Below, one piece after another: positions 5,849 through 34,655 of a DNA stretch of 39,816 bases; within the stretch, counting starts at the first letter, position 1; each line of letters starts with the position of its first letter. Below the pieces are notes generated by a model that saw nothing but the letters and a program-made list of their open reading frames with translations, was not told where the DNA came from and did no database searches. The position numbers and the translations under genes were made by a program. Source of the stretch: a virus (lineage: Duplodnaviria > Heunggongvirae > Uroviricota > Caudoviricetes); the IMG/VR virus record IMGVR_UViG_2541047807_000001, positions 1 to 39,816 of that record; one strand, written 5' to 3'.

Positions 5849-7099
5849 TTATTCCCCCGCCATCCACTTCTCAAACTTCGACGGGGAGAACGGAATCAGA
5901 TCCGTATGCTCCCCGTTAATCCAGGAATCAATCATATCGGCCCACTGCTGCAACATGTAGGCGCGCTGTCTGGCGTATTCCGCTTTGTTATATACGGCGC
6001 GCACACCTTTCTGCTCATGTGCCAGAGCCTTTTCAATCCAGTCTGAAGGATAACCAGCCTCATGCAACAACGTACTGGCTGTACGGCGCATATCGTGTAC
6101 GGTGAAGCCCTGAATATGCTCACCATCTTCATTTATTATTTTCACCGTTCTGTCGATCAGAGAGTTCAGCGCGGCATTAGATAATGGCTTCCGGAAATTG
6201 TAACGACCAGGAACCAGATATTCACTTCCACCAGCGCACATCTGCAACCCAACCAATATATCCTGTGCCTGTTTAGGCAGGTAAATAACGTGCGCCCGGC
6301 TTCCCTTCATGCGGTCTGAAGGAATTGTCCATGTCCATTTTTTAAAATCTATTTCATCCCACGTTGCATTGGTGAATTCGCCTTTACGAACCATAGTGAT
6401 AAGCACCAGCTTTAAAGCCATTTTCATAGTGCCCATAGCACCAATGGCATCCAGCGTGCGGAAGAACAGGCCAATTTCTTCTGGTGTCAGTGTTCGCTCT
6501 CGTGGTTTAAATATGGCGATAGACGAAGGTTTAATGTCAGCCGCAGGATTAAACAAACCATGACCACGGTCATTGGCGTGACGGTATACGCTGCTGATGA
6601 TCTCCCTGGCCTGTACTGCTGTTGCCCGACCACCGCGTTCGACAATCCGGTCACACAAATCACGAACCATCGATGTGGTAATTTCAGCCATCATTTTGTT
6701 GCCAAGAACCGGAAGTATGTCACGGTCGATCACCGCCTGCTTCATTGCGCGGGTACTGTCAGCCAGGATGACGTGTTTCATATAACTGTCGGTATGTACC
6801 GCAAACGTCTCGGCACCACGAATCTTTTTGATACCGTCACGTTTAGCCGCAGCCGGCGACTGGCCTGCTTTAAGCAGCTTCTTTGCAGCAATCAGTTCTT
6901 CTCGCGCTTCTGCCAGGCTGATACCGTCACGCCCATACTGCCCGATTACCAGTGTTTCGCGGCGACCGTTGATACGGTAGTCATAGCGAAACGAGACCGT
7001 GCCTGACGTAAGCACAGCTACATACAGCCCGTCACGATCGGAGACCTTGTACAGTTTGTCCTGCGGCTTGAGGTTTTTTAATTTTGTATCGGTAAGCAC
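5849..7099 (-). CDS. Tyrosine recombinase, phage integrase (P4-type with N-terminal arm-binding domain)
   Basis: 416 aa. N-terminal LTDTKLKNLKPQDKLYKVSDRDGLYVAV (arm-binding type) and C-terminal catalytic region with HDMRRTASTLL and a conserved Tyr. Confidence 0.85.
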   Translation of the reverse strand: MLTDTKLKNLKPQDKLYKVSDRDGLYVAVLTSGTVSFRYDYRINGRRETLVIGQYGRDGISLAEAREELIAAKKLLKAGQSPAAAKRDGIKKIRGAETFAVHTDSYMKHVILADSTRAMKQAVIDRDILPVLGNKMMAEITTSMVRDLCDRIVERGGRATAVQAREIISSVYRHANDRGHGLFNPAADIKPSSIAIFKPRERTLTPEEIGLFFRTLDAIGAMGTMKMALKLVLITMVRKGEFTNATWDEIDFKKWTWTIPSDRMKGSRAHVIYLPKQAQDILVGLQMCAGGSEYLVPGRYNFRKPLSNAALNSLIDRTVKIINEDGEHIQGFTVHDMRRTASTLLHEAGYPSDWIEKALAHEQKGVRAVYNKAEYARQRAYMLQQWADMIDSWINGEHTDLIPFSPSKFEKWMAGE

Positions 7100-8525: not shown

Positions 8526-8823
8526 GTTTAGACCTCGTTATTTTGAAAATCTGAACGACGTTACCGCGCGTTTTAATAACCGCAGCAAGCATGACAGCGT
8601 TGATAATGACTTCAGATAAATCCACAGCCATTGGCGTGCGTAACCAGATTGCATAGACGACACGAACTGGAATACTGGCTGCAGCAACAATCAGGAAATA
8701 AGCAAGCCACCCCCCCCATCTTCGGTGTTGTGAACCGTTACGCCGGAAAGTGACAACGCGAATTGCTATGCCAGTACAAATAACTGCATTGGTGATAAGC
8801 AAAAAAAACTCATGCGTTACCAT
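8515..8823 (-). CDS. Holin-like small membrane protein
   Basis: 102 aa with hydrophobic segments, directly upstream of the endolysin. Confidence 0.45.
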
Positions 8824-9226
8824 CGTCTTTTCTCCCCGGAATTAACTCGCGTGGGTTATCGGAACGGTGATAGAGCCAGATGCCAATTCGTACTGCGACG
8901 ATTGCTGACACAAATGCGCCAGCAGAGAAAACAATCCCTTTCTCGAAAGAGTCCTGCGTGATGGTAGGTATCAGGCTGGCTATGCCGATAAGAATTGATG
9001 CTGCTGGTTTGTAGAAAAGAAGTCCGCAGAGAAAACTAAGCATCGACAAGAGTACGCGACGACGAATTGGGTGCTCTACCGCAGAGGTAACAAAAATTAC
9101 CGCGCCAGCCAAAGCTCCCAAAGCAACCTCAGGAGGCACTCCTGCTATCACCGCCGCCAGAGAACTCATGCTAAGCCACTGATTTAATGTTTCACTGGTT
9201 AGTTGAGCTGACATATTTTCCACCAT
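8810..9226 (-). CDS. Holin-like membrane protein
   Basis: 138 aa with multiple predicted TM helices; first gene of the lysis cassette. Confidence 0.45.
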   Translation of the reverse strand: MVENMSAQLTSETLNQWLSMSSLAAVIAGVPPEVALGALAGAVIFVTSAVEHPIRRRVLLSMLSFLCGLLFYKPAASILIGIASLIPTITQDSFEKGIVFSAGAFVSAIVAVRIGIWLYHRSDNPRELIPGRKDDGNA

Positions 9227-9754: not shown

Positions 9755-12070
9755 TCATAAAATAGATTTCGTCTTTGTAACAATAATATCTACAAAATCA
9801 CCTGTAGATATAGCTGATGGTACTGTATCTGCAAGAGTAATCTTTTCTGAAGAGATGTTTTGCACATCTAATAATTTATTTTCAACCCCATCCGTATATA
9901 CCAATTTGACATCACTGAATGGAGGGTAATAAGTGACTGTTCCTTGGTATACATATATTTCACTGCCTGAAATTGATTTCACTACATACCTGCCCCTTAC
10001 AAGATTAATTTTGAGTTCAGATAAATCGGTTTTATAACAGGTAATTCCTGAACCAATGTTAGCCATACTAATATCAGTATCACTATAATAAGTAATTGCT
10101 TTTCCTTGTTTTAAGGTGAAGTTATCTTTGCTTTTCCTTGGCAAGGATGTGCTATTTTTGTAATATCTACCAGTTAAGCATAGCCATGAAAATGCAGTAT
10201 TCGCTACATTACCACCAGAATACACAGCTAAACGAATTGCACTAACTGGAACCCCTTCATTATTAATCCTGATCTTAATGGAAGAAATGTTAGCAACAGT
10301 AGCATATCTATGGTTAGATGAATCCCATTGCATAGAAGAAGTTATTGCTTCTGTTTGTGAAGTTATGACATTCCCATCTCCATCTAATGCATACAGGTAA
10401 ATGCGAAACGATGCCGTATCTGCTGAGAATGTAAACATATCACCATTTCTTACTGGTACATCTCCAGATTCCCATAACAACCCAAAATTCCGCATAAAAG
10501 CAAACTTAGAAGAAACTAGGTGACGGATATTATATAAACCATCTACATCTGTTTGATATGCTAATACACCAACTTCTCCATTGTTGGCACTGGATATAAA
10601 TGGGGTGTTAGCATTTAAAGAAAACAATGTTACTTCATCGGATATATTTTCCTGAACATGAAATACTGCATTCCCCTTGCCATTATCAGTTACCTCTACA
10701 TAAGTGTAAGGTGATGGATTGTATGGTTCATTTGTATAGTAAGGAGAACTTAACCATGAAGCCTCAATTGAGTTATTCCACGTATATTCACCAAAGTTAA
10801 TTATCAACTGTTGGTTAGTTGGGGATGATGGATATCGTTCAAAACGAAACCCGTAGAAGTAATTGTTATCACCTCTTTGAATATCAATTTTACCTGCCCC
10901 CTCCATAGTTCCACCATAAAACTTATTGTGGTTATGATGATATGGATTATCAGCGAAAATGATATTATTCGTACGATTCAGATAAAAATAGTTTTCATTT
11001 ATCCATCCGTTCTCAACTCCAAGAAAATGAATTGTATCGACCTTTTTCAGGTTAAAGGTTGAGTATGCTATTGAATAATCCGTCGATGCCACCGAAGCAT
11101 TATAATTTGCATATAACTGTAAGTAGTCGCAACGCTCAATGTTAATATGCTGCCCTTTTGCCCCGATAATACGAATATCCGGTGTCGTTTCAGATGAAAT
11201 ACCAGAATTTCTGATAATCGTTCCGAAGTTTTGTCTTGGGTTGTTAGGGTTTGATGCATTCCCGCCAAGCAATACCCCTATTCCTGAGTGGGATATGGTA
11301 AAAACAGCATTGGTCATTTCGAGGCTGACATTACGAAGATTTAATGTCTCCGTAATAATAAAATTACCTTCCGCTCGTAATGTTCTGGATGATTCTCGTG
11401 CATATTCTGCAGCCAGGATCAATGCAGATGTATCATCTGTTATACCATCGCCTTTTGCCCCAAAATCGCGAACACTAACGGTGTCTCTCATCTTATCCTG
11501 GAACGTTCGGTATACTGCTCCAGAACCATACTGAATAAACCAACCAAAACCACCAACAACCCCGGCGATTGCAGCATCGACATAATTACGCATTGAGCGA
11601 TTATTTACAGCGTCCTGCTCAAGTGATGGATCTGCAAGGTTAGAAATTTTGTTTTGCTTTGCATCGTAATATTTTGCAAGCAAAGATGGTTTCATCAATG
11701 CACGTCTGAACCACCCAAAACATTGCTGGATCAGCATCGTCAGGTAGTCAAAAGCATCTTCATGCACTTCGGGGAAAAATTTTCCCTGATTGCGAAGATC
11801 TGTCTCCTGCACTACATCAAGCACACGATCTATCGTAATTCGCCAGCCAGCAGCAAGCGGAGACGGCAGAACCACTGAACCGCCACTATAAGTGCCCGCC
11901 CCAGTTACCGTATAACCGGTATCCAGAACCAATTCTGTTACGTTCCCGTTCAGGTCAGACACCTGAACAACCAGGTCTGATTTTCTGAAAATTCGAAAAG
12001 TATACGGAAACGATGTCGTAACGCCGTTACCTGTGTATTCGTTGTGGTCAACTTCGGTTGAGACCGTCAT
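9755..12070 (-). CDS. Tailspike / receptor-binding protein with T7 gp17-like N-terminal adaptor and pectate-lyase-like beta-helix
   Basis: N-terminus MTVSTEVDHNEYTGNGVTTSFPYTFRIF is tail-fiber-adaptor-like; VRDFGAKGDGITDDT is a beta-helix depolymerase signature. The gene is visibly AT-rich versus its neighbours. Confidence 0.8.
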   Translation of the reverse strand: MTVSTEVDHNEYTGNGVTTSFPYTFRIFRKSDLVVQVSDLNGNVTELVLDTGYTVTGAGTYSGGSVVLPSPLAAGWRITIDRVLDVVQETDLRNQGKFFPEVHEDAFDYLTMLIQQCFGWFRRALMKPSLLAKYYDAKQNKISNLADPSLEQDAVNNRSMRNYVDAAIAGVVGGFGWFIQYGSGAVYRTFQDKMRDTVSVRDFGAKGDGITDDTSALILAAEYARESSRTLRAEGNFIITETLNLRNVSLEMTNAVFTISHSGIGVLLGGNASNPNNPRQNFGTIIRNSGISSETTPDIRIIGAKGQHINIERCDYLQLYANYNASVASTDYSIAYSTFNLKKVDTIHFLGVENGWINENYFYLNRTNNIIFADNPYHHNHNKFYGGTMEGAGKIDIQRGDNNYFYGFRFERYPSSPTNQQLIINFGEYTWNNSIEASWLSSPYYTNEPYNPSPYTYVEVTDNGKGNAVFHVQENISDEVTLFSLNANTPFISSANNGEVGVLAYQTDVDGLYNIRHLVSSKFAFMRNFGLLWESGDVPVRNGDMFTFSADTASFRIYLYALDGDGNVITSQTEAITSSMQWDSSNHRYATVANISSIKIRINNEGVPVSAIRLAVYSGGNVANTAFSWLCLTGRYYKNSTSLPRKSKDNFTLKQGKAITYYSDTDISMANIGSGITCYKTDLSELKINLVRGRYVVKSISGSEIYVYQGTVTYYPPFSDVKLVYTDGVENKLLDVQNISSEKITLADTVPSAISTGDFVDIIVTKTKSIL

Positions 12071-12244: not shown

Positions 12245-12266
12245 TTATTGCATGGAGAAGATTAAG

Positions 12267-12524
12267 ATGCAGCAGTATCACTATCCACTGGAAGACGGAT
12301 TTACCGAAAGGATTCACACGCCGGGAGGCGTCAGGTCACTGGTGGAGGGATCGCACTTGATGAAATTACTCCGGGATCTCGATAAGGATGGATTTAATGT
12401 CGATGGCCCACTTGCCGAACTGACTGCACTGATTAACTACGTCACCAGCTCACAGATGTCTATGCAGGATCTGCAAACACATCTCGACTATTGTGCCGAA
12501 CAATTACGAAAGCAAACCAGATAA
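12267..12524 (+). CDS. Small antirepressor-like protein (stand-alone paralogue of the antirepressor C-terminal domain)
   Basis: HLMKLLRDLDKDGFNVDGPLAELTALINYVTSSQMSMQDLQTH parallels LLMNLLNQLQEDGHDVSGAAAELTTMFCYIVGVSKCLRDIQTH in the downstream antirepressor. Preceded by the LexA box. Confidence 0.5.
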   Translation: MQQYHYPLEDGFTERIHTPGGVRSLVEGSHLMKLLRDLDKDGFNVDGPLAELTALINYVTSSQMSMQDLQTHLDYCAEQLRKQTR

Positions 12525-12837: not shown

Positions 12838-13523
12838 TGACTGCTAACGTAACCCCATCTGTTTTTCATTTTGAATCAGAAGCAACCATTCGAGCCATTG
12901 TTATTGATGGAAATCCTTGGTTTGTTGCCAAAGACGTTATTAAAGCTCTTCAACTGACAAACCCCACTATGTCAATAAAATCTCTTGATGATGATGAAAG
13001 GGCTAAATTTAACTTAGGCCGTCAAGGCGAAACCAATATTATCAACGAGTCAGGCCTCTACACACTGATCCTCCGCTGCCGCGACGCAGTGACACCAGGC
13101 ACTATCCCCTACCGCTTTCGTAAATGGGTTACAGGTGAGGTTCTTCCTCAGATCCGCCGCACCGGAAGTTACATTAAAAACTCGCTCCCGCAGGAAGAAC
13201 GCATAAAGATGGTTGCCGACCAGGTAGCCAACGCCATAGCATCAGCAGTGATGCAGGCAATGAAGATAGAGAACAAAACCTACAGTGCCCCGCTGAAGCC
13301 CGGCTACCGCAGTCTGATTCATTCGCCGTCGGGTGTTCTCGGCCTGACGGAGAACTCACTGCTGATGAATCTGCTGAACCAGTTACAGGAAGACGGGCAT
13401 GACGTATCGGGCGCGGCGGCGGAGTTGACCACCATGTTCTGCTACATCGTCGGTGTGAGCAAATGCCTGCGTGATATCCAGACCCACGCGGAGTACATCA
13501 ACGACAAGGCAGGGTTCTTCTGA
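12838..13523 (+). CDS. Antirepressor (Bro-N / AntA-type N-terminal domain)
   Basis: FHFESEATIRAIVIDGNPWFVAKDVIKALQLTNP is a Bro-N/Ant signature. RBS aaggtga before ATG 12838; the longer ORF-track start at 12684 lies in the terminator T-run. Confidence 0.7.
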
Positions 13524-13594
13524 CGGCGGCGGCACAGGGATGTGCCTTTAAATAATTCTGTACAGATTGCAGACTGTGGGTGAATAGCGTACTA

Positions 13595-13609
13595 TTACCT
13601 CAAGGGTAA
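13595..13609. promoter_or_regulatory. Repressor operator-type site TTACCtcaagGGTAA
   Basis: Perfect TTACC-N5-GGTAA upstream of the toxin-like module. Confidence 0.45.
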
Positions 13610-13669
13610 ACGGATTGGTTTCATTTTTATTAATCCGTGTAATGAACTTATGAGATATGAGGTAATGTC

Positions 13670-13849
13670 ATGCGAAACGAAAAATTGCAGATGCGTAGAG
13701 CGCAAGCTGCCGCAAGACGTTCTTTCAATGGAAGCGTAGAGTACGTAAAAGTTACTATGACAAAAGATCACGCAAGTCGCGTATCCCGCGCTTTCTTTGA
13801 TTCTCGTAACAATAAGGAAAATTATGAGTTCGTCTGCGTCGCAGAATGA
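13670..13849 (+). CDS. Small basic protein overlapping the start of the toxin-like gene (candidate partner or antitoxin)
   Basis: 59-codon ORF with RBS gagg 8 nt upstream; overlaps the next gene by 26 nt. Confidence 0.35.
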   Translation: MRNEKLQMRRAQAAARRSFNGSVEYVKVTMTKDHASRVSRAFFDSRNNKENYEFVCVAE

Positions 13850-14369
13850 TAAAAATCAAATTGTCAGATATAAGGGTCGAGTGTTGCATACGCAAAATTT
13901 CTCGGCCCTTTGTGCATCTGATCTTGAGCTGAAGAAAGTATCTGATGCCTTTACCCAGTATTGGAAAACGGGATACCATCCATCTCTTGGTAAAGATGCT
14001 GCATTTGCTCGTCCGACAGAAATGCTTAAACTAAATGTCAGGCATACTCATGTCGATAACCAAGACTATATTCCAGAAGATAGTGATAAAAAACACACTG
14101 GTAAAAAATCATCTTGGGATGCATGGAAAAATATAGCGTCTGTACAAGTAAAATGCATACCAACAAGTGATTGCTTTTTAGTTTATTCGGTAAATCACAA
14201 TCGTGATGCGCTGGTTATGTTTTTTGTTGACGCAGATGCTCACAACATAACTGAGCAAGAAGAGTTTAAAGAGGAAGCAATCACTATCAGTTATCAATTC
14301 TTTGAGAAAACAAAAACAGAACCAATGCCTTTAGAAGAAGATCTTTTTTCTGATAAATGGAAGGAATAG
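13824..14369 (+). CDS. YafO-like toxin family protein (candidate ribosome-dependent mRNA interferase)
   Basis: Three blocks in YafO order: YWKTGYHPSLGKDAAF, LNVRHTHV, CFLVYSVNHNRDALVMFFVDADAH, matching my recollection of E. coli YafO (...FGRDALY.., ..ERVAHIHL.., ..AHLVYCQGAFDEQAWLLIAILKPEPH). RBS aaggaaaa before ATG 13824. Confidence 0.5.
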   Translation: MSSSASQNDKNQIVRYKGRVLHTQNFSALCASDLELKKVSDAFTQYWKTGYHPSLGKDAAFARPTEMLKLNVRHTHVDNQDYIPEDSDKKHTGKKSSWDAWKNIASVQVKCIPTSDCFLVYSVNHNRDALVMFFVDADAHNITEQEEFKEEAITISYQFFEKTKTEPMPLEEDLFSDKWKE

Positions 14370-14390
14370 CCCGCAGCGCGGGCTTTTTTG
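14368..14390 (+). terminator. Rho-independent terminator
   Basis: agcccgc-agc-gcgggct hairpin followed by six T. Confidence 0.55.
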
Positions 14391-14460
14391 TGGACGAAAC
14401 AAAAGTCAGTGCTACACTCATTGACGCCACATTGAGGTGGCTTATAGATGGAAATTTCAC

Positions 14461-14623
14461 AATGAAAAAAGCATTTGCTGCACTGTTCGTTTTGTTGTCT
14501 CTGGTAGCTTCAACTCAGGCCTTTGCCGGTCGTTGTCAGCACGACAGCGATACTGCTGCTGACGGCTCCCGCTGCGGTGGGCGTTCTGCGGATTCCCGTC
14601 CGGGCGGCGGTGGCATTCGTTAA
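14461..14623 (+). CDS. Small secreted peptide with signal peptide, Cys-containing and Gly-rich
   Basis: MKKAFAALFVLLSLVASTQAFA signal peptide, then a 31-aa mature part. Own sigma70-like promoter TTGACG-16-TATAGA just upstream. Confidence 0.45.
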
Positions 14624-14659
14624 AAACAAGGCCGCGAAAGCGGCCTGTGACATGTCACG

Positions 14660-15109
14660 CTACTTGCGAAATCTTTCTTTACCCTTCCAGCCAGTAGATG
14701 TTAGTTCAGGATGAATGGTTCCCAATATAAAGCCAACCATAGCGGAGCGAGGATCTTCTATTTTATCCGTTAATTCTTCGGCATAACTCACAGGCAACCA
14801 AGCAACAAGATCACCAATCCTCAGCTTTGGTCCTTTGCTGTAAGATGAATCGGCAATAACAAAAAATCCACCATCAGCTGAGCACACCTTCAGCATTGCC
14901 CTTTGTCTTCCAGAATCTAGCAAAACTGGCTGTTCCCCACTGGGACCAGGTATGATGATGGCTGGCATTGGTTTATTGGCTGAAAGGCTTGTGTCAAGAT
15001 ACTTACACGCATACTCAAAAGCTGAAAAGTTATCCTTAAAGATAAGAGGTTGAATTTTATTGCTAACCTCCTTACCACCGATTAATCTGTTGATCATCTT
15101 CTTGAACAT
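14660..15109 (-). CDS. Hypothetical protein (AT-rich accessory gene)
   Basis: ATG at 15109 with RBS aggtga; about 150 aa; opposite orientation to flanking accessory genes. Confidence 0.5.
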   Translation of the reverse strand: MFKKMINRLIGGKEVSNKIQPLIFKDNFSAFEYACKYLDTSLSANKPMPAIIIPGPSGEQPVLLDSGRQRAMLKVCSADGGFFVIADSSYSKGPKLRIGDLVAWLPVSYAEELTDKIEDPRSAMVGFILGTIHPELTSTGWKGKERFRK

Positions 15110-15121
15110 AAAGGTCACCTA

Positions 15122-15562
15122 ATGATTAAGCCGATGCACGCTATTACAGCTACCGTTTTGTTTATCCTACCAATTTTTTCGTTTGCAAACGACATATGTT
15201 TTAAGAATTTAATAAATGAGGATATGTGTGCACATGCAAACAAAATCGCATCAGAAGCAGGAAAGTCACTTCCCATAAAATTGAATGATAATATGTCTAT
15301 TGTTTCAATAAATGCAATACTAAACAAACTTTTAGTTGTAGCGCATCTTAATTACAACAACAGCTATTTATCAAAAGTTTATAATGGTGATATAACCTTA
15401 GAAAATAAATTAAAGAGTGTGATGCGAAATTATTCAAAATCGAGCATTTGCTCCAACAGGCAAATGAAAGCATTTATTCACCTTGGCGGAGAGATTGAGT
15501 ATAGGTATGTATTTAGTGATGGCAATATATTTGATACATACGCCATCACTAATTGTGAATAG
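15122..15562 (+). CDS. Hypothetical periplasmic or exported protein (AT-rich accessory gene)
   Basis: N-terminal hydrophobic signal-like segment ITATVLFILPIFSFA, four Cys, low-GC composition. Confidence 0.5.
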   Translation: MIKPMHAITATVLFILPIFSFANDICFKNLINEDMCAHANKIASEAGKSLPIKLNDNMSIVSINAILNKLLVVAHLNYNNSYLSKVYNGDITLENKLKSVMRNYSKSSICSNRQMKAFIHLGGEIEYRYVFSDGNIFDTYAITNCE

Positions 15563-18500
15563 CTATTTCATCTGCTCTTCAACTTTATTTAGTAACGGTG
15601 ATATCGCCCACAGGTTCTGAAAAGGTAGCATTTTACGGACCGCGTGGGTTTGCTGGCTGTCAAATTCTCCGTTAAGTACACCATTCGCAACCGTCGCGGC
15701 ATCACCGCCAAGATCAAAGGTAGGACCAAGTAAAGCACCAATAGCATTACGACTCTGAAACCTTGATACCGGAGGCGCACCAAACATCGCGCCAAGACCA
15801 AACCTACCGCCGCTTATGTTCTCAACGGTATTCAGCGGCTCAGAGAGCCAGCCAAGCATTCCGCCCCGGTCGATCCCCTCTTTCACAAGGTTATTCCAGC
15901 TGTAGTCGATATCGCGACCGCTTAACTTCTGTTTCATCATATATACCATTGAGCCAAGCGCAATCGTGCCAAGCGCACCAAGATAGAATGCAGCATCGCC
16001 CTGCTGGATACCAGATACCAGCACCCTGTTATGCTGTGCGAAGATAAACGTTTTGAACTGCGTGATCATCTTCCAGCCTTCTTTACTAAAAAACAGCGGT
16101 GTATCACCTACGCCAGGCGTTACAATCACTGAGTCTACATCTTTCAGCACTGCAGACTGGAAAATCTCTCTAGCGAAACGGTCATCCCACAGATGACTAT
16201 GCCCGGTTAACAGCCCGTCCATATCCTCTCCGTGCTTCCCGAATTGCTCCCCGATTCGGCGCAGAACATCTTCATTGATGCCGACCTGTGCCATCTTCCG
16301 CATTTCACTTTTGGAGAGCGTGCCACCAGCAGAAACTTGGCGAGCCGCGTCAAGTATCCTCGACTGCACTATCATCCCGGACCATGATTTAAGTGCGCTG
16401 TTCCACTGATTCATCAGCGTCCAGTTACCGAATTTCTGCGTCATCCAGTTCAGACCTCGCTCAGCGGCGCTTCTCCGGCTATAGGGGTCAGTAAGATCCG
16501 CTATAGCCTTTGTACGCGTAGACAGGACATAATCAAGCCCAACGGCCATTTCTCGCAAATCCCTAGTTGCAATTTTCACTGAGTCCATATTTTTAAGCAT
16601 GCTTACCATTGGTCCGAGAGATTTTCTCAGGCCATGCTGCATCATCGGTCGCATCAGATCAGTTGCAGCGGAGACAGTCATTCCACCAAGCAAACGGAGG
16701 AAGTTAATATTCCTAGCAACTCGCCCGGCACGAACAAAGAAACTGCGTGGATCTTGAGGTGCGCCGTAAGTACCAAGCAGTCGATCACGCATAGCCGTAA
16801 TATCCCTAATATCAGCCTCCCGTTGCTTCTCAAGAACTGCACGTCGTTTAGGTGTTTTAGCCTCTTTTATTAGCCGGGTATATTCCTCACTAACCTGACG
16901 GATTTGCTCCCCCATATCTTTACGGCCAAACTGCGCAGTCAGCTCAATTTCTGGTGCCACCTGCCGGAGATAACTTTCCATGATGTAGTTAACATCTGAT
17001 TCAAGAAAATCTTCTATACGCTCATCAGGAATAAGCAGCGTTCTGCTTTTAGTGAAACCAGCCCGACCAACGAGTCTCTCTGGGATAATATCGGCTGGTA
17101 CAAGCCCGGAAGGTGCGCCTATTATTTTATTCACGATCTCGTCAGCAGCGTCCTCTGCTTCCTCTCGGGATAGAGGCTCCATCTGCTTCAGTGCTCGTTC
17201 GCGGCTTGCATTCAGCCTTGTGGTTGAATTTGCCCGTTTTTGCAGTCGGCGAAGCTCAGAACGATATTTCCGTGGATTATCCAGCAACTCCATATGGCGC
17301 TGATAGACAGGAAGCTCACTCTTTGCCTGCGCTATATCATCAAGGCGTGTTTTAAGGTCAGAGCTTTCTTTCATCATTCTTGCCTGAAGTTTTTCTGATG
17401 AAGTCTCGGCCAACTCTTTTTCTATTCTTGTAAGACGCGCCTGTGTGTCAGTCTCCTGAGATATAAGCTTATTTCGTTTATCCAGTTCTTCCATGAGTAG
17501 AATTTTTTTACCAGACCATTTCTCCGCTTCAGCGATTTCACTAGCGAGAGCATCAGCGCGCGGTGCCGATTCCTCTGCAGTTTTTAGCAATGAATTTATC
17601 CTTTCAATTCGCTGACCTGCTTTGTCAGCACCTTTGGCACTAATCCCTTGTATCCAGTTGGCAATTCGCCCTCTGAATTCAGTGCGGTCGGAAAGTATCT
17701 TATCGAACTTATAAATGCGGGGAAGATAACTTTTCGCCGTCACGACATCGATATCCTCAGGAAGGATCCCCAGTTCCTGCATACGGGCTTTTGTGGTCTC
17801 GAAAATGGGGCGGATTCTGGCGGCTGCTTGTGAAACCTCAGGAATATCACTCTGATCACCACGGCGCATAGCCATGCCAACAGCTTCATTGAAATCAATA
17901 AAGTTCATCCTCTTCACGCCGCGGGCGCTAACAGATTTGCTGTACTGCTGGTAAGCATCACGAGTGGCTTCCATCTGCTTATAAAGCATGGCGTCGTATT
18001 GCTTAATCTTAGTCTCGACTGCCGTAAACGTAGCCAACCCCTCATCATTTTTGGCGAAGAAATAGTTATTTTCGGCAAGCTGCTGGTTAATCTGACGGGA
18101 GACAAGAGATGGTGATTGAGCCAAGCGGCCAGCAGGAGTGACACTCAACGTTTTGTTAGCAAGTCCAAGTCCAGCGAGCTGTTCCTGATCGAGTGTGGTA
18201 TTGAAAACCTGAGCTGCACCAATGCTTTGAGGAGAATCCATACCTCGCAAATGATTACCTACTGAGTTAACCACTGCCTCGCGCGCGCTAGGTCCAGCAA
18301 GTAGCTGTGCACCAGCACCAAGGATCCCACCAACGAGAGCATCAACAACAACGTTCGATACGCTCTCCATCGGTGAGCGAGCTTCCTGAGTGGCCTGTAA
18401 TGCGGCTTCTGATACTCCCCCACCAGCAGCATTCGCCAGGGCAAAACGCCCTGCCGTCTCAGCAATACTTCCTCCACGCGCTACCGCCCCTACAGGGATA

Positions 18501-18952
18501 AACATTGCAGCCACATTAACCGGGTCTATCATTCCCATTGCTAAGCTTGAAATAGTACCAGCACCACCCATTTCAGATAGATATTCTCTATCTGTTCTTT
18601 GCTTATCGATTCGATGTTTAATTGCCATTGTTTCTTCATGCGAACCGGAGTTGATAAACGAATCTGCAAAATCTTCATAGCCTTTAATATCTGCTGCATC
18701 GTTATCAAATGGGTTATATCCTTCAACCCTGTCAAACTGACTGAAAGGAGCACTGGCAATAAAGCTACCCAGCGTGTTATCTATACGAAATGCTGCTTGT
18801 CTAGACCTTTGAACGCGTTGATCACTGGTAAATGGGTTCACAGCAGAAAGCAAAGAAGGTGTTTCCATATAGAAATTACTGTCATCAGGTGCTGCTATTT
18901 GCTGAATATCCTCGCCAAGCAACTCTTTAGGATCCTGTTCATATATCGGCAT
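15563..18952 (-). CDS. Large internal virion / DNA-ejection protein (T7 gp16-like position)
   Basis: 1129 aa with a long coiled-coil central region, upstream of the tailspike in the structural operon. Confidence 0.55.
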   Translation of the reverse strand: MPIYEQDPKELLGEDIQQIAAPDDSNFYMETPSLLSAVNPFTSDQRVQRSRQAAFRIDNTLGSFIASAPFSQFDRVEGYNPFDNDAADIKGYEDFADSFINSGSHEETMAIKHRIDKQRTDREYLSEMGGAGTISSLAMGMIDPVNVAAMFIPVGAVARGGSIAETAGRFALANAAGGGVSEAALQATQEARSPMESVSNVVVDALVGGILGAGAQLLAGPSAREAVVNSVGNHLRGMDSPQSIGAAQVFNTTLDQEQLAGLGLANKTLSVTPAGRLAQSPSLVSRQINQQLAENNYFFAKNDEGLATFTAVETKIKQYDAMLYKQMEATRDAYQQYSKSVSARGVKRMNFIDFNEAVGMAMRRGDQSDIPEVSQAAARIRPIFETTKARMQELGILPEDIDVVTAKSYLPRIYKFDKILSDRTEFRGRIANWIQGISAKGADKAGQRIERINSLLKTAEESAPRADALASEIAEAEKWSGKKILLMEELDKRNKLISQETDTQARLTRIEKELAETSSEKLQARMMKESSDLKTRLDDIAQAKSELPVYQRHMELLDNPRKYRSELRRLQKRANSTTRLNASRERALKQMEPLSREEAEDAADEIVNKIIGAPSGLVPADIIPERLVGRAGFTKSRTLLIPDERIEDFLESDVNYIMESYLRQVAPEIELTAQFGRKDMGEQIRQVSEEYTRLIKEAKTPKRRAVLEKQREADIRDITAMRDRLLGTYGAPQDPRSFFVRAGRVARNINFLRLLGGMTVSAATDLMRPMMQHGLRKSLGPMVSMLKNMDSVKIATRDLREMAVGLDYVLSTRTKAIADLTDPYSRRSAAERGLNWMTQKFGNWTLMNQWNSALKSWSGMIVQSRILDAARQVSAGGTLSKSEMRKMAQVGINEDVLRRIGEQFGKHGEDMDGLLTGHSHLWDDRFAREIFQSAVLKDVDSVIVTPGVGDTPLFFSKEGWKMITQFKTFIFAQHNRVLVSGIQQGDAAFYLGALGTIALGSMVYMMKQKLSGRDIDYSWNNLVKEGIDRGGMLGWLSEPLNTVENISGGRFGLGAMFGAPPVSRFQSRNAIGALLGPTFDLGGDAATVANGVLNGEFDSQQTHAVRKMLPFQNLWAISPLLNKVEEQMK

Positions 18953-21699
18953 TATTTGCCCCCTGCGTATATATTGCTCGGAAGGTAATTGGCTGAACCA
19001 TAACCGAATGGTTTGGTCAGATCTGGAGGAGTATATCCATCTTTATTGCTGAACTGCGGCAGCGGATTGCCTTCTCTCCGCACTCTAGCCTCATCAACAC
19101 GTTGTTGCTGGAACTGAATGGTTTGCCTGTACATTGGAGATGTCAGCTGATCCGGCTTGAAACGAACAGGGAGACCATTTTCTCCAATATAATTTCTCGG
19201 TTCTATCGCTCCGTTTGCGTCAGGCTGTAAAACCATAACAGCATAACTCCTATCCCTTGCCGTAAGGCCATCAGAAACAAGTATTAAGTCCGTATCACTG
19301 CGAGGACCGCCAAAGGATTTTGATTTAAGCTCGCGTTTTTCCTGCTCCCACTGCCCCTGTATCCAGTTACCAGCACCATTATTTACTCCGTACAATGCCT
19401 CAGGTGCATACTTCATAACCTCTGCTTTGCCATTAACCGTAGAAACTCCCCAGGTGGTTCTGATCATGGCATTGGTCATTTTCTCAGCCTGTTCTGCATC
19501 GCCACCTGTCTGTACAAAGTTAGCATCGTAAATTGTCTGGTAATCTCGCTGATAGGCCGCATTTGATTTTCCTGGATCGGTAATATCCGGAGACCACGAA
19601 CCAAAGGAAGTCAGACTGCTGGCGTTATTTTGTGCAGCAGTTGCCCTCGCCGCGACATATTTTTTGTCTCGCATGGCAGTGGAAAGCATCTGTTTCATTC
19701 GGTCATCCTGTTGGAACACCTGGCTGTAAGCCATATCAACAGCCTTATCCTCCGGCACGCCAGCGCGGGAATAATCGTAAACCTTGCCGTAAAATGCCAT
19801 CGTACTTTTATCAAGTGTTGCCGCTGCCGCCGGATTATTATCGAATAACTGACCGTAGAATTTTGCCATCGGGACAACCAGCGCAGGATCTCTTGATGTT
19901 GCTCCACTGTTAAGCATTGTTTTAACCTGAGTTGGTATCATGCCGCTTTTAGTTGTGACGGTGACCAGTGTATTGATGCTCTGCGGATCAGATATGGAAA
20001 ACGAAGGCGCGATATCCTGCGCGAAATAACGGTCTACCGCTGCCTGATTGTTTTTGTCGTTCGGGTCCAGCGGGAAGTTATTTTGCATTGAAGACACGAA
20101 CCTGTTTCTTCCCTGCTGAATCTCCCACTCCCTATCCATCTCTTTAAATTTGGCCTGCATTTTCTCCCAGCGTTGCTGGTTAGCTGCAAATCCAGGAGCG
20201 TTTGGATCCTGTGGACGTAAACGTTCAAGAATGTCTTGTCGTCCTTCTGGAGTGAGGTCTTTAGCGGCACCAATGACACCTCCATATTGTATCTGCGCCT
20301 GCATATCCTTCCACTTCATAGCGCCAATGCGCGGACCATTGGCCCGGATAAAATCGTCCTCAGAAGGTAACTTCTCAGGTTTCAATCCTTCATCAAGGGC
20401 TGAATATGCATCTTTAACTACGGTGCTAAGCTGGTCCGCATACTGCTGGCGGTACTGATTTCTCAGCTCATTAGCCTGCCTCAATGCCTGTATTTGCATT
20501 TGAGGGCTCATAGCATCAAATGCCGCATTGCCCGTATAACGCTTAGGTGAATCAAGGTTAGTTAGACCAAGGGCTGCCGAGATACCAGTTTCAAGCTGTT
20601 CGGTGCTATAAGGCATACTGCCATTTTCGTGTTTAATAATCCCAGCACATAAAGCAGCTAGTGTCTTTGGGTTAGAGATATCAAGCTGATCATTCTCCCC
20701 AACACCAAGCTCACCACACAATGCCCTAATATAAGCATCAGTATTATTACCATCACTAGCCGGAGCATAGCGATTAACAATCTCGCTAACGGTGTCATAG
20801 CCTTGACGCTGGTAAGACAACATATTTTTACCCAACGCGCGGATTCCATGCTCAGGGGTAGCAAACGTTGCAAAACGTCCATCGCTACCGATCTGACCTT
20901 CCCACGGGTTAGATTTGCTCGCTTCAATATTACCAGGGTTATTATTACGTAAACCACGAGCATCCAATGAATTACCATGTGATATTGCACGACTCACACC
21001 ATCAAGATCCCCTGGCTCTCCATTAACCTGAAGAAACTCGTTGTATTTTTGAGCGATATTTCCTATCCATGCTTGCTGCCCCATTTGTTCCTTGAGCTGA
21101 GTTTTCTGCTGAACACGCCACTCATCAGGAAGCCCATGCGCATCAGCGTATTGATCAATAGATTCAAATCGCTGCTTGGCTAAATCGACAAATGCTTGGT
21201 TATCGCTATATAGCCCCGCAGACTGAGTGACAGCCAATGCATTTCCTGACAAATACGTTTGATCTTGGAATTGCTGAAACTGCCCAACTTCATATCGACG
21301 TGCCTGATTGTAATAAGACTGCATAGACTGCTGGAGTTGAAAGGATAATTTATTCCTTTCCTCACTTTCAGGAATTGAGCCTAATAATGCCTGAGCCCTT
21401 TCCTGCATATTTTTCATAACAGCGTCACTCTGACCAAGAGCGTTTTTACCCTGTTTAGAAATCAGCCCACTTTCAGGGTTGTTAATCTGGTCATCTGCAA
21501 ATTGGTTAAATTGCAGTAACGCCTCCTGGGCCATAGCAACATTCGCTTTCTGCCTGGCTTCACCATATGCCACCGCATACTGATCTGCGACATTCGCCAG
21601 CACCTGACCTGCTTGAGGAACATCGAAGATCTGAAAACCACCGGTTTGCACACCACGACTTTGCACCTGGCGTCCGGATGTAGTAGGAACAACAGGCAT
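18952..21699 (-). CDS. Internal virion / core protein (T7 gp15-like position)
   Basis: 915 aa structural-operon gene; contains a RGLRNNNPGNIEAS...W.G segment that may be a cell-wall-interacting domain. Confidence 0.55.
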   Translation of the reverse strand: MPVVPTTSGRQVQSRGVQTGGFQIFDVPQAGQVLANVADQYAVAYGEARQKANVAMAQEALLQFNQFADDQINNPESGLISKQGKNALGQSDAVMKNMQERAQALLGSIPESEERNKLSFQLQQSMQSYYNQARRYEVGQFQQFQDQTYLSGNALAVTQSAGLYSDNQAFVDLAKQRFESIDQYADAHGLPDEWRVQQKTQLKEQMGQQAWIGNIAQKYNEFLQVNGEPGDLDGVSRAISHGNSLDARGLRNNNPGNIEASKSNPWEGQIGSDGRFATFATPEHGIRALGKNMLSYQRQGYDTVSEIVNRYAPASDGNNTDAYIRALCGELGVGENDQLDISNPKTLAALCAGIIKHENGSMPYSTEQLETGISAALGLTNLDSPKRYTGNAAFDAMSPQMQIQALRQANELRNQYRQQYADQLSTVVKDAYSALDEGLKPEKLPSEDDFIRANGPRIGAMKWKDMQAQIQYGGVIGAAKDLTPEGRQDILERLRPQDPNAPGFAANQQRWEKMQAKFKEMDREWEIQQGRNRFVSSMQNNFPLDPNDKNNQAAVDRYFAQDIAPSFSISDPQSINTLVTVTTKSGMIPTQVKTMLNSGATSRDPALVVPMAKFYGQLFDNNPAAAATLDKSTMAFYGKVYDYSRAGVPEDKAVDMAYSQVFQQDDRMKQMLSTAMRDKKYVAARATAAQNNASSLTSFGSWSPDITDPGKSNAAYQRDYQTIYDANFVQTGGDAEQAEKMTNAMIRTTWGVSTVNGKAEVMKYAPEALYGVNNGAGNWIQGQWEQEKRELKSKSFGGPRSDTDLILVSDGLTARDRSYAVMVLQPDANGAIEPRNYIGENGLPVRFKPDQLTSPMYRQTIQFQQQRVDEARVRREGNPLPQFSNKDGYTPPDLTKPFGYGSANYLPSNIYAGGK

Positions 21700-22274: not shown

Positions 22275-22738
22275 TATTTTCTCTCCATGTGAAATCTGTG
22301 GAAATTAAGACCAAGAGCACCATAAGGCGCGGCTTCTTCAAGCCTGAATCCAAGCCAGTGGAGCCATGCTTTGGCAACATGGTTTCGCTCGTCGACGTAG
22401 TTTTCCAGGCGCGGATAAACTGCCAGCATCTGCCGCAATACAGGGTGGCAGTGGCGAAGAAATGTCTTCTGATATTTTTCAATACGGCTGGTCCCGACCA
22501 GCCAGGGCGTACCATTGCCACCGATCATTGACGCCGGAGATACACCAAACATGGTTACCAGTTCTCCGTTCGCGAACCCTGACCAGGCCATAGTCGCAGT
22601 GCGCAGACCAACACGCAGCGCATCTTCGGTAGTCATCAGCGATACCGCATACAGTTCGTCAATATCAGCCTGACGAACATCCGGCAAAATCATCTGAAGA
22701 TGCTCTTCGGTAGCGGGAATAATTTGAACATCGATCAT
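22274..22738 (-). CDS. Virion-associated protein (gp13-like position)
   Basis: 154 aa, coupled within the structural operon. Confidence 0.4.
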   Translation of the reverse strand: MIDVQIIPATEEHLQMILPDVRQADIDELYAVSLMTTEDALRVGLRTATMAWSGFANGELVTMFGVSPASMIGGNGTPWLVGTSRIEKYQKTFLRHCHPVLRQMLAVYPRLENYVDERNHVAKAWLHWLGFRLEEAAPYGALGLNFHRFHMERK

Positions 22739-27022: not shown

Positions 27023-28015
27023 TTACACCACGCGGGCTTCTGTTTCCAGAAGCGCATCAGTTTCACGGATTGGTACACCACGGAATGAAGTCCACCACTC
27101 GCCTTCTGTCTCTTTTACGCTGATCGCCAGAGATGTTTTCTCCAGAGATTGCAGATCAAGAGCCTGGCCTACAGTGCGGTTCATGTAGAACACCGGGCGA
27201 CCCATGCCACGATTTGGAATGCGATGCAGTGCTTTAACCATCAACTTCGCAATATTTGCGGCAGAGGAAGGTTCTGAAAGATTGCTGACATCGATGTTTG
27301 CAATGCGAACAACATAACGCCAGTCACGCAGAGCAAGTCCGTTATCCCATTTGTAATGGGTGCGATAGCCTTCGTACTTGCCGCCATTAGCATCTTCCAG
27401 TGTCACCTGGCCTTTATCTTCCATTTGGATGCCAGCCTTCTGCCCTTTCGGGAAGATGCCATGCACGGTGTTTTCGCCCCACACCACTAACCAGATTGAG
27501 GTGTTATCTGTACCCGTGCCACCAGCATCAATGATGTTCTGAGCATTACCCGCAGACAGGCTGGAATAGCGGGAGGACAGTCCCATAAACTGCTGAGGGT
27601 TAACGCTGGAATCACCATAAAACAGCGTCTGCGCCATCTGCTGATTCATCGCTTCAATAAATGCGCGGTCTTCAGACAGGCGGAATTCGGCGGTATTGCC
27701 GTTCAGATCAGCCAGTGACTTATCGACTTCCGCATAGGTTTCCAGCATGCCAACGGAATCGGTTACCTGTACTGTGGTTGATTTGCTTGGCTGTACGCCA
27801 TAGTTCAGCAAACGCCAGGTAGCTGAAGGTAAACCAGAACGAATGGTGGTTCGGTGTCCGGTAGGAAGGTTCCCTTCGACAAAAGGCATATCCTGAAGGA
27901 TCGGGTTAGTTTGACCGAGAAGCTCGATAATCTTATCGACTTTCCCGTTTGGATCGACGCGCTTACCCCAGTCAGCCAGCGTTAGCGCAGTTAAGCCTTT
28001 AACAGCCATTGTCAT
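27023..28015 (-). CDS. Major capsid protein (HK97 fold inferred)
   Basis: 330 aa, downstream of the scaffold gene; size and position typical of a major capsid protein. Confidence 0.7.
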   Translation of the reverse strand: MTMAVKGLTALTLADWGKRVDPNGKVDKIIELLGQTNPILQDMPFVEGNLPTGHRTTIRSGLPSATWRLLNYGVQPSKSTTVQVTDSVGMLETYAEVDKSLADLNGNTAEFRLSEDRAFIEAMNQQMAQTLFYGDSSVNPQQFMGLSSRYSSLSAGNAQNIIDAGGTGTDNTSIWLVVWGENTVHGIFPKGQKAGIQMEDKGQVTLEDANGGKYEGYRTHYKWDNGLALRDWRYVVRIANIDVSNLSEPSSAANIAKLMVKALHRIPNRGMGRPVFYMNRTVGQALDLQSLEKTSLAISVKETEGEWWTSFRGVPIRETDALLETEARVV

Positions 28016-28721: not shown

Positions 28722-29018
28722 TCACTCCTGTTCACTGGCCTCTTTGGCCATCTTCAAATACTGTTCAGGGCAATGCGCCATAACGCGCTGAAACAGTTCA
28801 AGCGCCAGATTGCGTTGCCCCTCATTAAATGCCATTGCCATAGCGTCCATCGGTGAGATAGCGGAAAACACACGGCCTTTCTCCAGCACCGACCAGACAA
28901 CGCGCCGCCCCTGTTCACTGCTCATGACAAAGCGAATGTCATCAATTTCACGCTGCGCCATGTCACGTTGCTTACGGGCGTTTTCTTCTTTCAGTTGATC
29001 GTCTTCGTAATCTGTCAT
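28722..29018 (-). CDS. Hypothetical protein
   Basis: 98-aa ORF coupled between the portal and scaffold genes. Confidence 0.45.
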   Translation of the reverse strand: MTDYEDDQLKEENARKQRDMAQREIDDIRFVMSSEQGRRVVWSVLEKGRVFSAISPMDAMAMAFNEGQRNLALELFQRVMAHCPEQYLKMAKEASEQE

Positions 29019-32037: not shown

Positions 32038-32057
32038 CACCGTGACATGTCACAAAC

Positions 32058-34196: not shown

Positions 34197-34313
34197 AACC
34201 ACCGTGGTAATAGTTACCGTTGTGGTAATAGTACCATGCAAAATAAAGCCGCCATAGTTGGCGGCAGTATTCAAAACCATCAAATTCATCATGCATAATC
34301 TACTCGTGACATG

Positions 34314-34655
34314 TCACACTATTAATTTCGTTTCATGCCAGCCTTTAGTCACCCAGCATTGCGAGTCACCATTACACGGGCATGAATTAACGGGAACTCT
34401 CTCGCCGCACTTACCGCAACATTTTCTGCTGATCGATTTTATACGCCCGCGCACGCGTGCATCATCCTGGCGGATCAGTAACGCTATATACTCACCAAAT
34501 TCGTAAGGCGCACGCCCGGGGCGACGCGTGGCACAGTTACGCTCCAGCATTTCAATTTCCTGAGCATCAAGCACAATTTCCAGCTTACGCACACCAGATG
34601 CAGCTTGTCTGGCTCTCTGAGCGGCTTTGCGCTCTGCTGCTGATTTAGCCATCAA
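34314..34655 (-). CDS. Hypothetical protein with Cys-rich C-terminus
   Basis: 113 aa ending in CCGKCGERVPVNSCPCNGDSQC; last gene before the late operon. Confidence 0.45.
   Translation of the reverse strand: MMAKSAAERKAAQRARQAASGVRKLEIVLDAQEIEMLERNCATRRPGRAPYEFGEYIALLIRQDDARVRGRIKSISRKCCGKCGERVPVNSCPCNGDSQCWVTKGWHETKLIV

Follow-up and report, generated by a model that had tools for sequence, protein, structure and literature searches.

A predicted exported C-x12-C peptide on a candidate single-gene moron cassette of a Uetakevirus genome

The window analyzed here, the whole 39,816 nucleotides of IMG/VR record IMGVR_UViG_2541047807_000001, is a Uetakevirus (phiV10/epsilon15-like) phage or prophage genome. 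The structural, lysis, and integration genes identified in it by PHROG matches all lie on the minus strand. Between the internal virion proteins and the tailspike, at about 12.1–15.56 kb, sits an accessory island with mosaic guanine-plus-cytosine (GC) content that contains a Bro-N antirepressor, a YafO-like toxin pair, two further small genes, and the subject of this report, a plus-strand open reading frame (ORF) of 53 codons. An original prediction, made from the letters of the DNA alone, had taken this ORF for an independently promoted gene for a small secreted peptide, flanked by terminators and expressed from the prophage as a moron.

The locus and the predicted precursor

The features of the locus are the following.
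14368–14390, plus strand: intrinsic terminator AGCCCGC-AGC-GCGGGCT with T-run (hairpin 14368–14384), found by scan; it ends the YafO-like gene
14391–14396, plus strand: inferred weak −35-like element TGGACG (4/6), 16 nt 5′ of the conserved −10
14410–14418, plus strand: candidate promoter, extended −10 TGcTACACT (TG 14410–14411, hexamer 14413–14418), from the alignment of 15 leaders
14421–14448, plus strand: promoter of the original prediction, TTGACG (14421–14426), 16 nt, TATAGA (14443–14448)
14426–14441, plus strand: 5′-leader hairpin GCCAC-N6-GTGGC, 5 bp (14426–14430 with 14437–14441), from folding and covariation
14462–14623, plus strand: peptide ORF, ATG start, 53 codons and stop
14462–14527, plus strand: codons of the 22-residue predicted signal peptide, MKKAFAALFVLLSLVASTQAFA
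14528–14623, plus strand: predicted mature 31-residue peptide, GRCQHDSDTAADGSRCGGRSADSRPGGGGIR, and stop codon
14534–14608, plus strand: core C-x12-C mini-domain, C25 to G49, CQHDSDTAADGSRCGGRSADSRPGG (C25 at 14534–14536, C38 at 14573–14575)
14629–14646, minus strand: GC-rich hairpin AGGCCGC-GAAA-GCGGCCT with its T-run on the minus strand at 14619–14628, terminator of the convergent gene at 14660–15118
14647–14658, no strand: palindrome GTGACATGTCAC, right edge of the cassette, directly after which the flanking genes diverge (comparison of loci)

The product of the ORF is MKKAFAALFVLLSLVASTQAFA followed by GRCQHDSDTAADGSRCGGRSADSRPGGGGIR, with the predicted cleavage between the two. The signal peptide opens with MKK, continues with a 13-residue hydrophobic core, AFAALFVLLSLVA, and ends in STQ-A-F-A, after which the mature part begins with G. 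The sequence thus has the positive n-region, the hydrophobic core, and the small residues at −3 and −1 of a Sec/signal peptidase I precursor and has no lipobox, and the 31-residue mature peptide contains eight glycines (26%) and two cysteines, C25 and C38. The canonical signal peptide and Gly-rich mature part with two cysteines that had been read from the ORF are borne out by the sequence. An A/S/V-x-A cleavage site is kept in 30 diverse homologues, one to four residues before the first cysteine, and the h-region varies. We infer, with good support, that the precursor is exported by Sec, that signal peptidase I cuts it after A22, and that the product is located in the periplasm.

A different fate, in which the signal anchor stays uncleaved and tethers the loop to the inner membrane, for instance for superinfection exclusion at the site of DNA entry, would agree with the NCBI and PHROG names (“transmembrane anchored protein,” “membrane associated protein”) and with the tethering of the domain in longer relatives, usually by a transmembrane segment or a lipid anchor. 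Those names, however, come from unreviewed annotation that has been propagated; the small-x-small (−3, −1) site and the G that follows it are kept in nearly all homologues, the h-region drifts as it does in cleaved signals, and its length of only ~13 residues is short for a stable transmembrane helix. We consider an anchored protein quite improbable. A lipoprotein was rejected, as R or N occupies position −1 of the cysteine in the enterobacterial clade and leaves no lipobox.

Other frames at the locus were also rejected. An 88-residue in-frame extension from an ATG at 14357, within the YafO-like gene (14357–14623, plus strand), crosses the upstream terminator and is unconserved outside E. coli; the long starts found in several automatic gene calls (e.g. 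P0007, 85 aa, 269 members) are probably mis-annotations. Overlapping ORFs at 14437–14562 and 14523–14714 on the plus strand and 14510–14653 on the minus strand were discarded because the substitution pattern fits the 14462 frame only, and a five-codon upstream ORF that runs from an ATG at 14449 to a TGA at 14466, across the main ATG, shows no conservation among relatives.

Coding conservation and homologues

The precursor matches PHROG 14503 over its whole length (E = 2.3e-40, residues 1–53 of 53), and its amino acid sequence is 100% identical to gp43 of Escherichia phage TL-2011b (YP_007001994.1, “putative transmembrane anchored protein”). These entries, which have no Pfam or NCBIfam model, represent the same family with no difference from the window peptide. 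PHROG 14503 and NCBI (“transmembrane anchored protein”) thus list the family already, by name only and uncharacterized: no literature was found for the database name or for core sequence strings, and the literature on TL-2011b and phiV10 is silent on the gene.

Homologues fall into 57 clusters from Escherichia, Shigella, Klebsiella, Citrobacter, Cronobacter, Franconibacter, Salmonella, Pectobacterium, and Dickeya. In their alignment the stretch C25-Q-H-D-x-D-T-A-A-D-G-S-R-C38-G-G-R-S-A-D-S-R-P-G-G is almost invariant, and the signal peptide drifts. H27, D30, and D34 are at least 90% conserved in this mobile-element clade, with H27 near-invariant. All 25 of the 25 amino acids of the core, C25 to G49, are the same in E. 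coli, Pectobacterium, and Dickeya at a synonymous divergence (pS) of 0.67–0.78, which amounts to synonymous saturation. The apparent nonsynonymous divergence (pN) of the core is 0–0.11, mainly from switches between the Ser codon families, compared with 0.12–0.31 for the signal peptide, and the reading frame is intact in 35 peptide variants. A core that is unchanged at saturated synonymous sites is incompatible with a chance ORF and with the overlapping frames, and the contrast in pN between core and signal peptide indicates that selection acts on the mature peptide. Conservation as a coding sequence in related phages, on which the original prediction had staked itself beforehand, is what we find: 57 clusters, with purifying selection on the core.

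It might be argued that the DNA or RNA at this site, such as terminators or junction sequences, is conserved and not the protein, as the hairpins and the palindrome that bound the cassette are also present without the ORF in phiV10. Against this stand the unchanged core and the frame kept in 35 variants, the retrieval by a protein profile (see below) of 182 further clusters that include multi-domain proteins, and the lack of an Rfam match at the locus, where a scan of 13500–15600 returned nothing relevant. A chance or non-coding origin is vanishingly improbable, and the comparative sequence data can be taken to have already refuted it. With high confidence, then, the ORF is predicted to be a genuine gene with an exported product on an autonomous cassette.

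Promoter, leader, and terminators

The original prediction had the gene transcribed from TTGACG-16-TATAGA. Both hexamers are literally present, but the pair is not called by a consensus scan, and TATAGA lacks the near-invariant T at position 6 of the −10 element. A start directed by TATAGA would leave a leader of only ~7 nt without a Shine-Dalgarno sequence, and neither hexamer is conserved in the relatives from Klebsiella, Cronobacter, Pectobacterium, and Rahnella. In the homologous leaders TATAGA aligns with a box, CTACACATGG, that has no −7 T. Different genera share this box (CTTATAGATGG in the window, 14441–14451), which is situated past the leader hairpin and ahead of the start codon; in the window it gives rise to the five-codon upstream ORF described above. 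TTGACG-16-TATAGA is probably not a promoter, judging from these comparisons.

When 15 non-redundant leaders are aligned (from elements of E. coli, of the Klebsiella type, and of Cronobacter, Pectobacterium, and Rahnella), a site farther upstream stands out. At 14413–14418, T1, A2, and T6 of a hexamer (TAnnnT) are invariant in all 15 leaders, which represent at least five genera; the window has TACACT, and TACAAT, TATGAT, TAAAAT, TACGCT, and TACTTT are found elsewhere. At the place of the weak −35-like TGGACG, relatives have TGGATG or TGGCTG, and at the homologous site of Cronobacter the scan picks up TTGTGA-16-TAAAAT. We therefore regard the upstream TACACT, and not the pair first proposed, as the probable promoter. 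Transcription is predicted to start near 14425, and the mRNA would begin with a 5′-terminal stem-loop.

The hairpin that forms this stem-loop lies ~7 nt after the −10 element. In the alignment 90.8% of its cells are paired (slid controls, 21–59%), compensatory changes occur at three of six pairs, and its covariation score was reached by none of 500 shuffles. A 5′-terminal stem-loop stabilizes mRNAs such as ompA.

Of the two flanking terminators claimed for the gene, the upstream one stands as described: it is an intrinsic plus-strand terminator (14368–14384 with T-run) and is kept before the peptide gene behind at least seven different upstream genes in E. coli phages. The downstream hairpin at 14629–14646 is strong and stable on the plus strand but has no U-tract there; its T-run is on the minus strand only, so that as a terminator it belongs to that strand. 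It has a compensatory variant, GGCCCGC/GCGGGCC, in Cronobacter and is labeled “terminator” in phiV10, which lacks the ORF. Plus-strand terminators 3′ of the gene are present in relatives L002, L004, and L093. The transcription unit corrected in this way, as predicted here, is new.

A mobile cassette in phages and plasmids

The boundaries of the conserved segment were located by comparing the window with 80 IMG/VR loci that encode an identical peptide. Homology ends 65–120 nt upstream of the ATG, at the upstream terminator, in 63 of the 80, and 40–55 nt past the stop codon, right after the palindrome GTGACATGTCAC, in 67. The cassette so delimited is ~295 bp long, about 14365–14659, with the upstream terminator as its left edge and the palindrome as its right edge. 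Around it the neighbors are shuffled: 251 loci show 29 upstream and 19 downstream neighbor families. The GC content is 59% over 14480–14639 versus 35–41% upstream and 42–46% downstream. Among the close relatives, TL-2011b, phiv142-3, HEMP4, and EC.W1-9 carry the ORF; it is absent at the same position from phiV10 and the O157 typing phages, which keep the last ~22 nt of the ORF, the hairpin, and the palindrome.

The palindrome is a perfect one of 12 bp with three exact copies in the window (14647–14658, 32042–32053, and 34306–34317). At two sites it takes part in the arrangement stop codon, palindrome, GC hairpin, T-run at a 3′ gene end, and at the cassette boundary it is kept in Uetakeviruses of E. 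coli, Klebsiella, and Cronobacter. It may serve as a site for a regulator or nuclease, or mark module junctions.

The gene is also found in elements of quite different kinds. In Pectobacterium and Dickeya it occupies a different prophage type, beside MuF_C polymorphic-toxin and tail-tip genes; in another E. coli element (L090) it follows lysis genes and a RelB/YafQ pair; and in a prophage on a Rahnella megaplasmid it lies between the Q antiterminator and the lysis genes. It is carried by a 150-kb IncF plasmid, and on small MOBP mobilizable plasmids of 3.1–3.4 kb in Salmonella and Klebsiella a peptide homologue is the sole annotated non-mobilization gene. Two plasmid homologues, on the Klebsiella plasmid NZ_CP138754 (L095, 3360 bp) and on a Salmonella contig of 3115 bp (L091), are 72–74% identical to the peptide. 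Approximately 422 of 5426 complete E. coli genomes (~8%) carry the gene.

In one lambdoid prophage (L093, 4927–6195) the peptide gene is the third cistron of an operon that consists of cI (helix-turn-helix and Peptidase_S24), Rap1a (type VI secretion system (T6SS) amidase immunity), and the peptide gene, followed by a canonical intrinsic terminator. An 8-nt gap separates the last two genes, and the Shine-Dalgarno sequence of the peptide gene overlaps the Rap1a stop codon. Its place behind cI argues for transcription in lysogens. The Rap1a gene is an orphan T6SS immunity gene in a rexAB-like position; rexAB are the genes at the corresponding position downstream of cI in lambda.

Presence or absence in close relatives, shuffled neighbors, deviant GC content, and the spread over diverse prophages and plasmids uphold the view of the gene as a moron. 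With the phage morons in the Hendrix/Juhala sense (lambda bor/lom, HK97 gp15, rexAB) it shares the character of an extra gene, deviant GC content, patchy occurrence in close relatives, and location at a module junction or in an immunity operon; a promoter of its own is predicted, and of the two flanking terminators the upstream one is on the strand of the gene. It differs in that the peptide is unrelated to any characterized moron product and that its expression from the prophage is deduced from context. Expression independent of the late operon is a well supported prediction, and a host-benefit moron that is expressed in lysogens is the likely interpretation. As a genetic element the cassette appears to be an ordinary, very clean moron; what is new, on the evidence of these comparisons, is a single-gene cassette common to several phage types and small plasmids.

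A widespread extracytoplasmic mini-domain

A profile of 31 positions, made from mature peptides and searched against 1.84 billion cluster representatives, retrieved 182 proteins or representatives at E ≤ 1e-3. The statistics of the module that they share refer to the 150 matches listed of the 182, of which 146 were newly retrieved; 139 of these 146 have a recognizable module, in 142 copies. Among these listed matches the module has a fixed length of ~27 residues and the pattern G-N-C-x-[Y/C/H]-P-x-D-x-A-[A/S]-D-G-S-R-C-G-x-R-[S/A]-A-x-x-R-P-G-G, with C3, C16, R19, and G26 invariant in all 142 copies. It ends within three residues of the C terminus in 94 proteins, and a hydrophobic segment precedes it in 122. 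A few family proteins carry two copies. Notable forms in the wider family (P0059, P0067, P0094, P0117, P0176, and others) are tandem-repeat members, a “G-N-C-P-C-P-Y” subfamily with a third cysteine, and members with a second hydrophobic segment before the domain. The window peptide has every invariant residue and fits the family definition, G-x-C-x12-C-G-x-R-[SA]-[AS]-x3-x-G-G together with a signal peptide or anchor.

The domains that co-occur with the module (T2SS-T3SS_pil_N, SH3_3/SH3_4, PG_binding_1/2, the NucA/NucB DNase, DUF4124, and an N-terminal zinc ribbon with a transmembrane segment) are all extracytoplasmic or compatible with an N-in/C-out topology. A scan of one genome per species found precursors of 46–60 residues that consist of a signal peptide and the module in many taxa (Enterobacterales, Rhizobiales, Rhodoferax, Vibrio, Burkholderia, cyanobacteria, where a lipobox is frequent, Bacteriovorax, and Polyangiaceae), which are diderms exclusively. 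Around 45 non-enterobacterial loci no neighbor recurs beyond pairs of related genomes, and in cluster look-ups the distant members are mostly unnamed metagenomic proteins.

Pfam and NCBIfam hold no family for the module, as judged from searches with the precursor (E ≤ 1 in Pfam), with 18 mature peptides at E ≤ 10, and with 10 long relatives. A sequence profile search of the PDB at E ≤ 10 gave no match, and PADLOC-DB gave none (0 families) for the peptide and nine neighbors. AlphaFold2 modeling of the 53-residue precursor from a 21-sequence alignment yielded only a confident signal-peptide helix, with a predicted local distance difference test (pLDDT) score below 60 in the mature part. With a 50-sequence alignment of the domain, pLDDT rose to 74 overall and ~80 over residues 1–20; this model is a closed loop in which a bridge links residues 9 and 15, and Foldseek comparison of it with the PDB returned only noise (best E = 3.5). 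The mature peptide thus appears to be the minimal free copy of a widespread and undescribed extracytoplasmic C-x12-C mini-domain. Its placement in a broad mini-domain family found neither in Pfam nor in NCBIfam, which rests on sequence comparison, is new.

Proposed function and alternatives

Our best explanation as a whole, which we hold at roughly even confidence, is as follows. The gene would be transcribed from its own sigma-70 promoter, the extended −10 TGcTACACT at 14410–14418, with a start near 14425, into an mRNA that begins with a small conserved hairpin, probably a stabilizer. Sec would export the 53-residue precursor, signal peptidase I would cleave it behind AFA22, and a hydrophilic peptide of 31 residues (~3.1 kDa) would be released into the periplasm. 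There, going by general knowledge of that compartment, DsbA would most likely join C25 and C38 by a disulfide and so close an Asp-rich loop of 12 residues. The peptide may then bind a conserved component of the diderm envelope, not a phage-specific target, and benefit the cell that carries it as a lysogen or on a plasmid. Such a conserved envelope target is suggested by the lack of a partner gene, the sequence frozen across phages, plasmids, and hosts, and the restriction of the family to diderms.

As to the activity itself, we favor, as a guess, a binder or inhibitor that protects the cell from within the periplasm, for example one that blocks peptidoglycan-degrading enzymes brought in by superinfecting virions or by the T6SS of competitors. 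We advance it tentatively and think it doubtful. Weak indications in its favor are the adjacency to Rap1a, a periplasmic T6SS-amidase immunity protein, in the cI operon of L093; the transglycosylase- and endolysin-type domains in the internal virion proteins of the phage itself; and the analogy to T4 Spackle and Ivy. Spackle, which effects superinfection exclusion in the periplasm by inhibiting the tail lysozyme gp5, is like the peptide a small Sec-exported phage protein, and here too the infecting virion carries peptidoglycan-degrading internal proteins; the analogy is a functional one, with no sequence or fold similarity detected. Spackle is helical and ~75 residues long. Ivy proteins, periplasmic inhibitors of lysozyme and lytic transglycosylases, have the location and the disulfide-closed loop with His and Asp that are predicted for the peptide (CQHD in the peptide, CKPHDC in Ivy), but they have ~130 residues and a 4-residue loop compared with 31 residues and a 12-residue loop in the peptide, which has no Pfam match to them; in addition, H27 of the peptide is unconserved in the wider domain family. 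In searches of Pfam, NCBIfam, PHROG, the PDB (E ≤ 10), and Foldseek, no similarity was found to Ivy/PliC/MliC, Spackle, MgrB, or the heat-stable enterotoxins.

On the widest formulation the peptide might be the mobile minimal form of a new exported C-x12-C family that acts alone on a universal envelope component, a new single-gene class of periplasmic immunity peptide or inhibitor, directed for instance at peptidoglycan hydrolases from phages or secretion systems, and spread by the protection of its carriers. This is a speculative proposal that we consider improbable; if true, it would make the gene considerably more interesting, and if the function proved trivial or undetectable, the locus would still be a clean textbook moron cassette with defined boundaries.

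Several observations weigh against the proposed account. The TACACT promoter has a weak −35 and scores 8/12, under the scan threshold, and the window offers only a poor Shine-Dalgarno sequence. Among the longer members of the family, some (P0066 and P0075) have a signal peptide and a second hydrophobic segment before the domain, which would naively be placed in the cytoplasm. No similarity to known inhibitor or defense proteins was found with Pfam, NCBIfam, PADLOC, the PDB, or Foldseek. Position 5 of the module is Cys or His in 43 of the 142 copies among the matches listed, to which a metal site fits equally, and the near-invariant H27 of the mobile-element clade fits a metal site as well as it fits a disulfide loop. 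Lysogeny by vB_EcoP_ZX5, which carries the peptide gene split across the ends of its deposited record, made no detectable difference to growth, stress survival, biofilm, antibiotic sensitivity, adhesion, or virulence; the part of the source available mentions no phage or T6SS resistance (PMC9782041). The phiv142-3 prophage, which also carries the peptide gene, is reported to raise stress resistance and colonization (cited in the same part of PMC9782041). Both findings concern whole prophages.

The residues at position 5 bring in a periplasmic metal-binding peptide as an alternative, in which a site for Zn, Cu, or Ca would be made up of C25-x-H27, D28, D30, D34, and C38, and the peptide would buffer or chaperone a metal and so confer tolerance or acquisition. 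It would make sense of the “CxCPY” subfamily with its three cysteines and of the conservation of H27, D30, and D34 in the mobile-element clade, and the position of the gene as lone cargo on small plasmids fits a directly selectable trait. The segment D-x-A-A-D-G-S-R-C moreover resembles, without gaps, the DxDxDGxxC calcium loop of Excalibur (PF05901), another short extracytoplasmic module bracketed by cysteines with an Asp-rich D-G-x-x-C, and one longer family member contains a NucA/NucB DNase domain, just as Excalibur occurs fused to secreted nucleases. In the peptide, however, the central Asp of DxDxDG is replaced by Ala (D-x-A-A-D-G-S-R-C-G), the cysteine spacing is 12 compared with ~30 in Excalibur, and the 18 mature peptides matched neither the Excalibur hidden Markov model nor that of any other metal-binding family in Pfam, even at E ≤ 10. 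The His or Cys at position 5 is unconserved in the wider family, where Y, S, F, N, and T are common; two cysteines in the oxidizing periplasm are normally disulfide-bonded; and the ZX5 lysogen showed no stress phenotype in the available part of PMC9782041, in which metals are unmentioned. We rate a metal-binding function as unlikely.

The constancy of the sequence across hosts and element types, which is extreme, speaks for a conserved host target and could also be accommodated by a modulator that docks on the periplasmic domain of an envelope sensor or enzyme, such as a histidine kinase, protease, or penicillin-binding protein, and rewires the physiology of the lysogen in the manner of MgrB on PhoQ or MzrA on EnvZ. 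Small size, two periplasmic cysteines, and the lack of a partner gene recall known small regulatory envelope proteins; MgrB, an inhibitor of PhoQ, has ~50 residues, an N-terminal hydrophobic segment, and two periplasmic cysteines, ~10–12 residues apart, that matter for its function. MgrB keeps its transmembrane anchor, as known modulators do, whereas the conserved signal peptidase I site of the peptide predicts release, and the two have no sequence similarity. The occurrence of the family in Rhizobiales, cyanobacteria, Bacteriovorax, and Polyangiaceae would demand a target that is nearly universal in diderms. The reported effect of phiv142-3 on stress resistance and colonization is in its favor, though for the whole prophage, and the lack of a phenotype in ZX5 speaks against it (PMC9782041, in the part available). 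A modulator of this kind is rather improbable in our estimate.

A Sec signal followed by a short Cys-containing mature peptide on mobile elements is also superficially like the STa and STb precursors, and together with the lone-cargo position on mobilizable plasmids it raises an exported toxin, bacteriocin, or signaling peptide that acts on other cells, in the way of heat-stable enterotoxins or secreted pheromones. No gene for immunity, a receptor, maturation, or outer membrane export lies nearby, synteny is not conserved, and a hydrophilic 3-kDa peptide has no obvious route through the outer membrane. In most longer proteins the module is a tethered C-terminal tail, which is incompatible with an ancestral diffusible signal, and carriers among the free-living Rhizobiales and cyanobacteria argue against a host-directed enterotoxin. 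This alternative is very unlikely.

Whatever its activity, a predicted exported peptide with 31 frozen residues occurs in roughly every twelfth complete E. coli genome and in many genomes of Klebsiella, Cronobacter, Pectobacterium, and Rahnella, and it is selectable enough to be the lone cargo of 3-kb plasmids and to occupy a cI operon. With no partner gene and a size accessible to chemical synthesis, its function should be unusually easy to test, and once a ligand is found for the phage peptide, annotation would follow for hundreds of envelope proteins and tiny secreted peptides of proteobacteria and cyanobacteria.

Neighboring genes and other features of the window

The genes assigned elsewhere in the window by PHROG matches, and the two neighbors that lie outside the cassette, are as follows.
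5849–7099, minus strand: integrase
8810–9226, minus strand: holin
9755–12070, minus strand: tailspike/tail fiber
13797–14369, plus strand: YafO-family toxin-like gene, upstream neighbor (Pfam YafO_toxin, E = 9e-6; RefSeq annotation in TL-2011b)
14660–15118, minus strand: convergent downstream neighbor, 152 aa, PHROG 9944 (function unassigned)
15563–18952 and 18952–21699, minus strand: two large internal virion proteins with endolysin/transglycosylase-type domains
22738–25209, minus strand: tail protein
27023–28015, minus strand: major head protein
29015–30694, minus strand: head–tail adaptor
32128–33603, minus strand: large terminase

A 59-residue ORF (PHROG 6685) at 13670–13849 on the plus strand overlaps the YafO-like gene, and the two are likely a toxin–antitoxin pair directly 5′ of the cassette. 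A type II toxin–antitoxin pair likewise lies 5′ of the peptide gene in two further elements, RelB/YafQ in L090 and Gp49/HI1420 in a Rhizobium locus (L256). Farther upstream is a plus-strand gene at 12252–12524 (90 aa, PHROG 450) that is homologous to phiV10 p24 and epsilon15 gp19. In every Uetakevirus locus examined it is the first gene of the plus-strand block that faces the tailspike, and in Cronobacter it is immediately followed by the peptide gene.

On the other side, a 146-residue plus-strand ORF of low GC content (24–36%) at 15122–15562 sits tightly between genes of the opposite strand. Its product matches PHROG 8772, gave no match in Pfam and PADLOC searches, and has a signal peptide of its own, MIKPMHAITATVLFILPIFSFA, followed by ND after the cleavage site. 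From its sequence it looks like a second exported moron of the same island.

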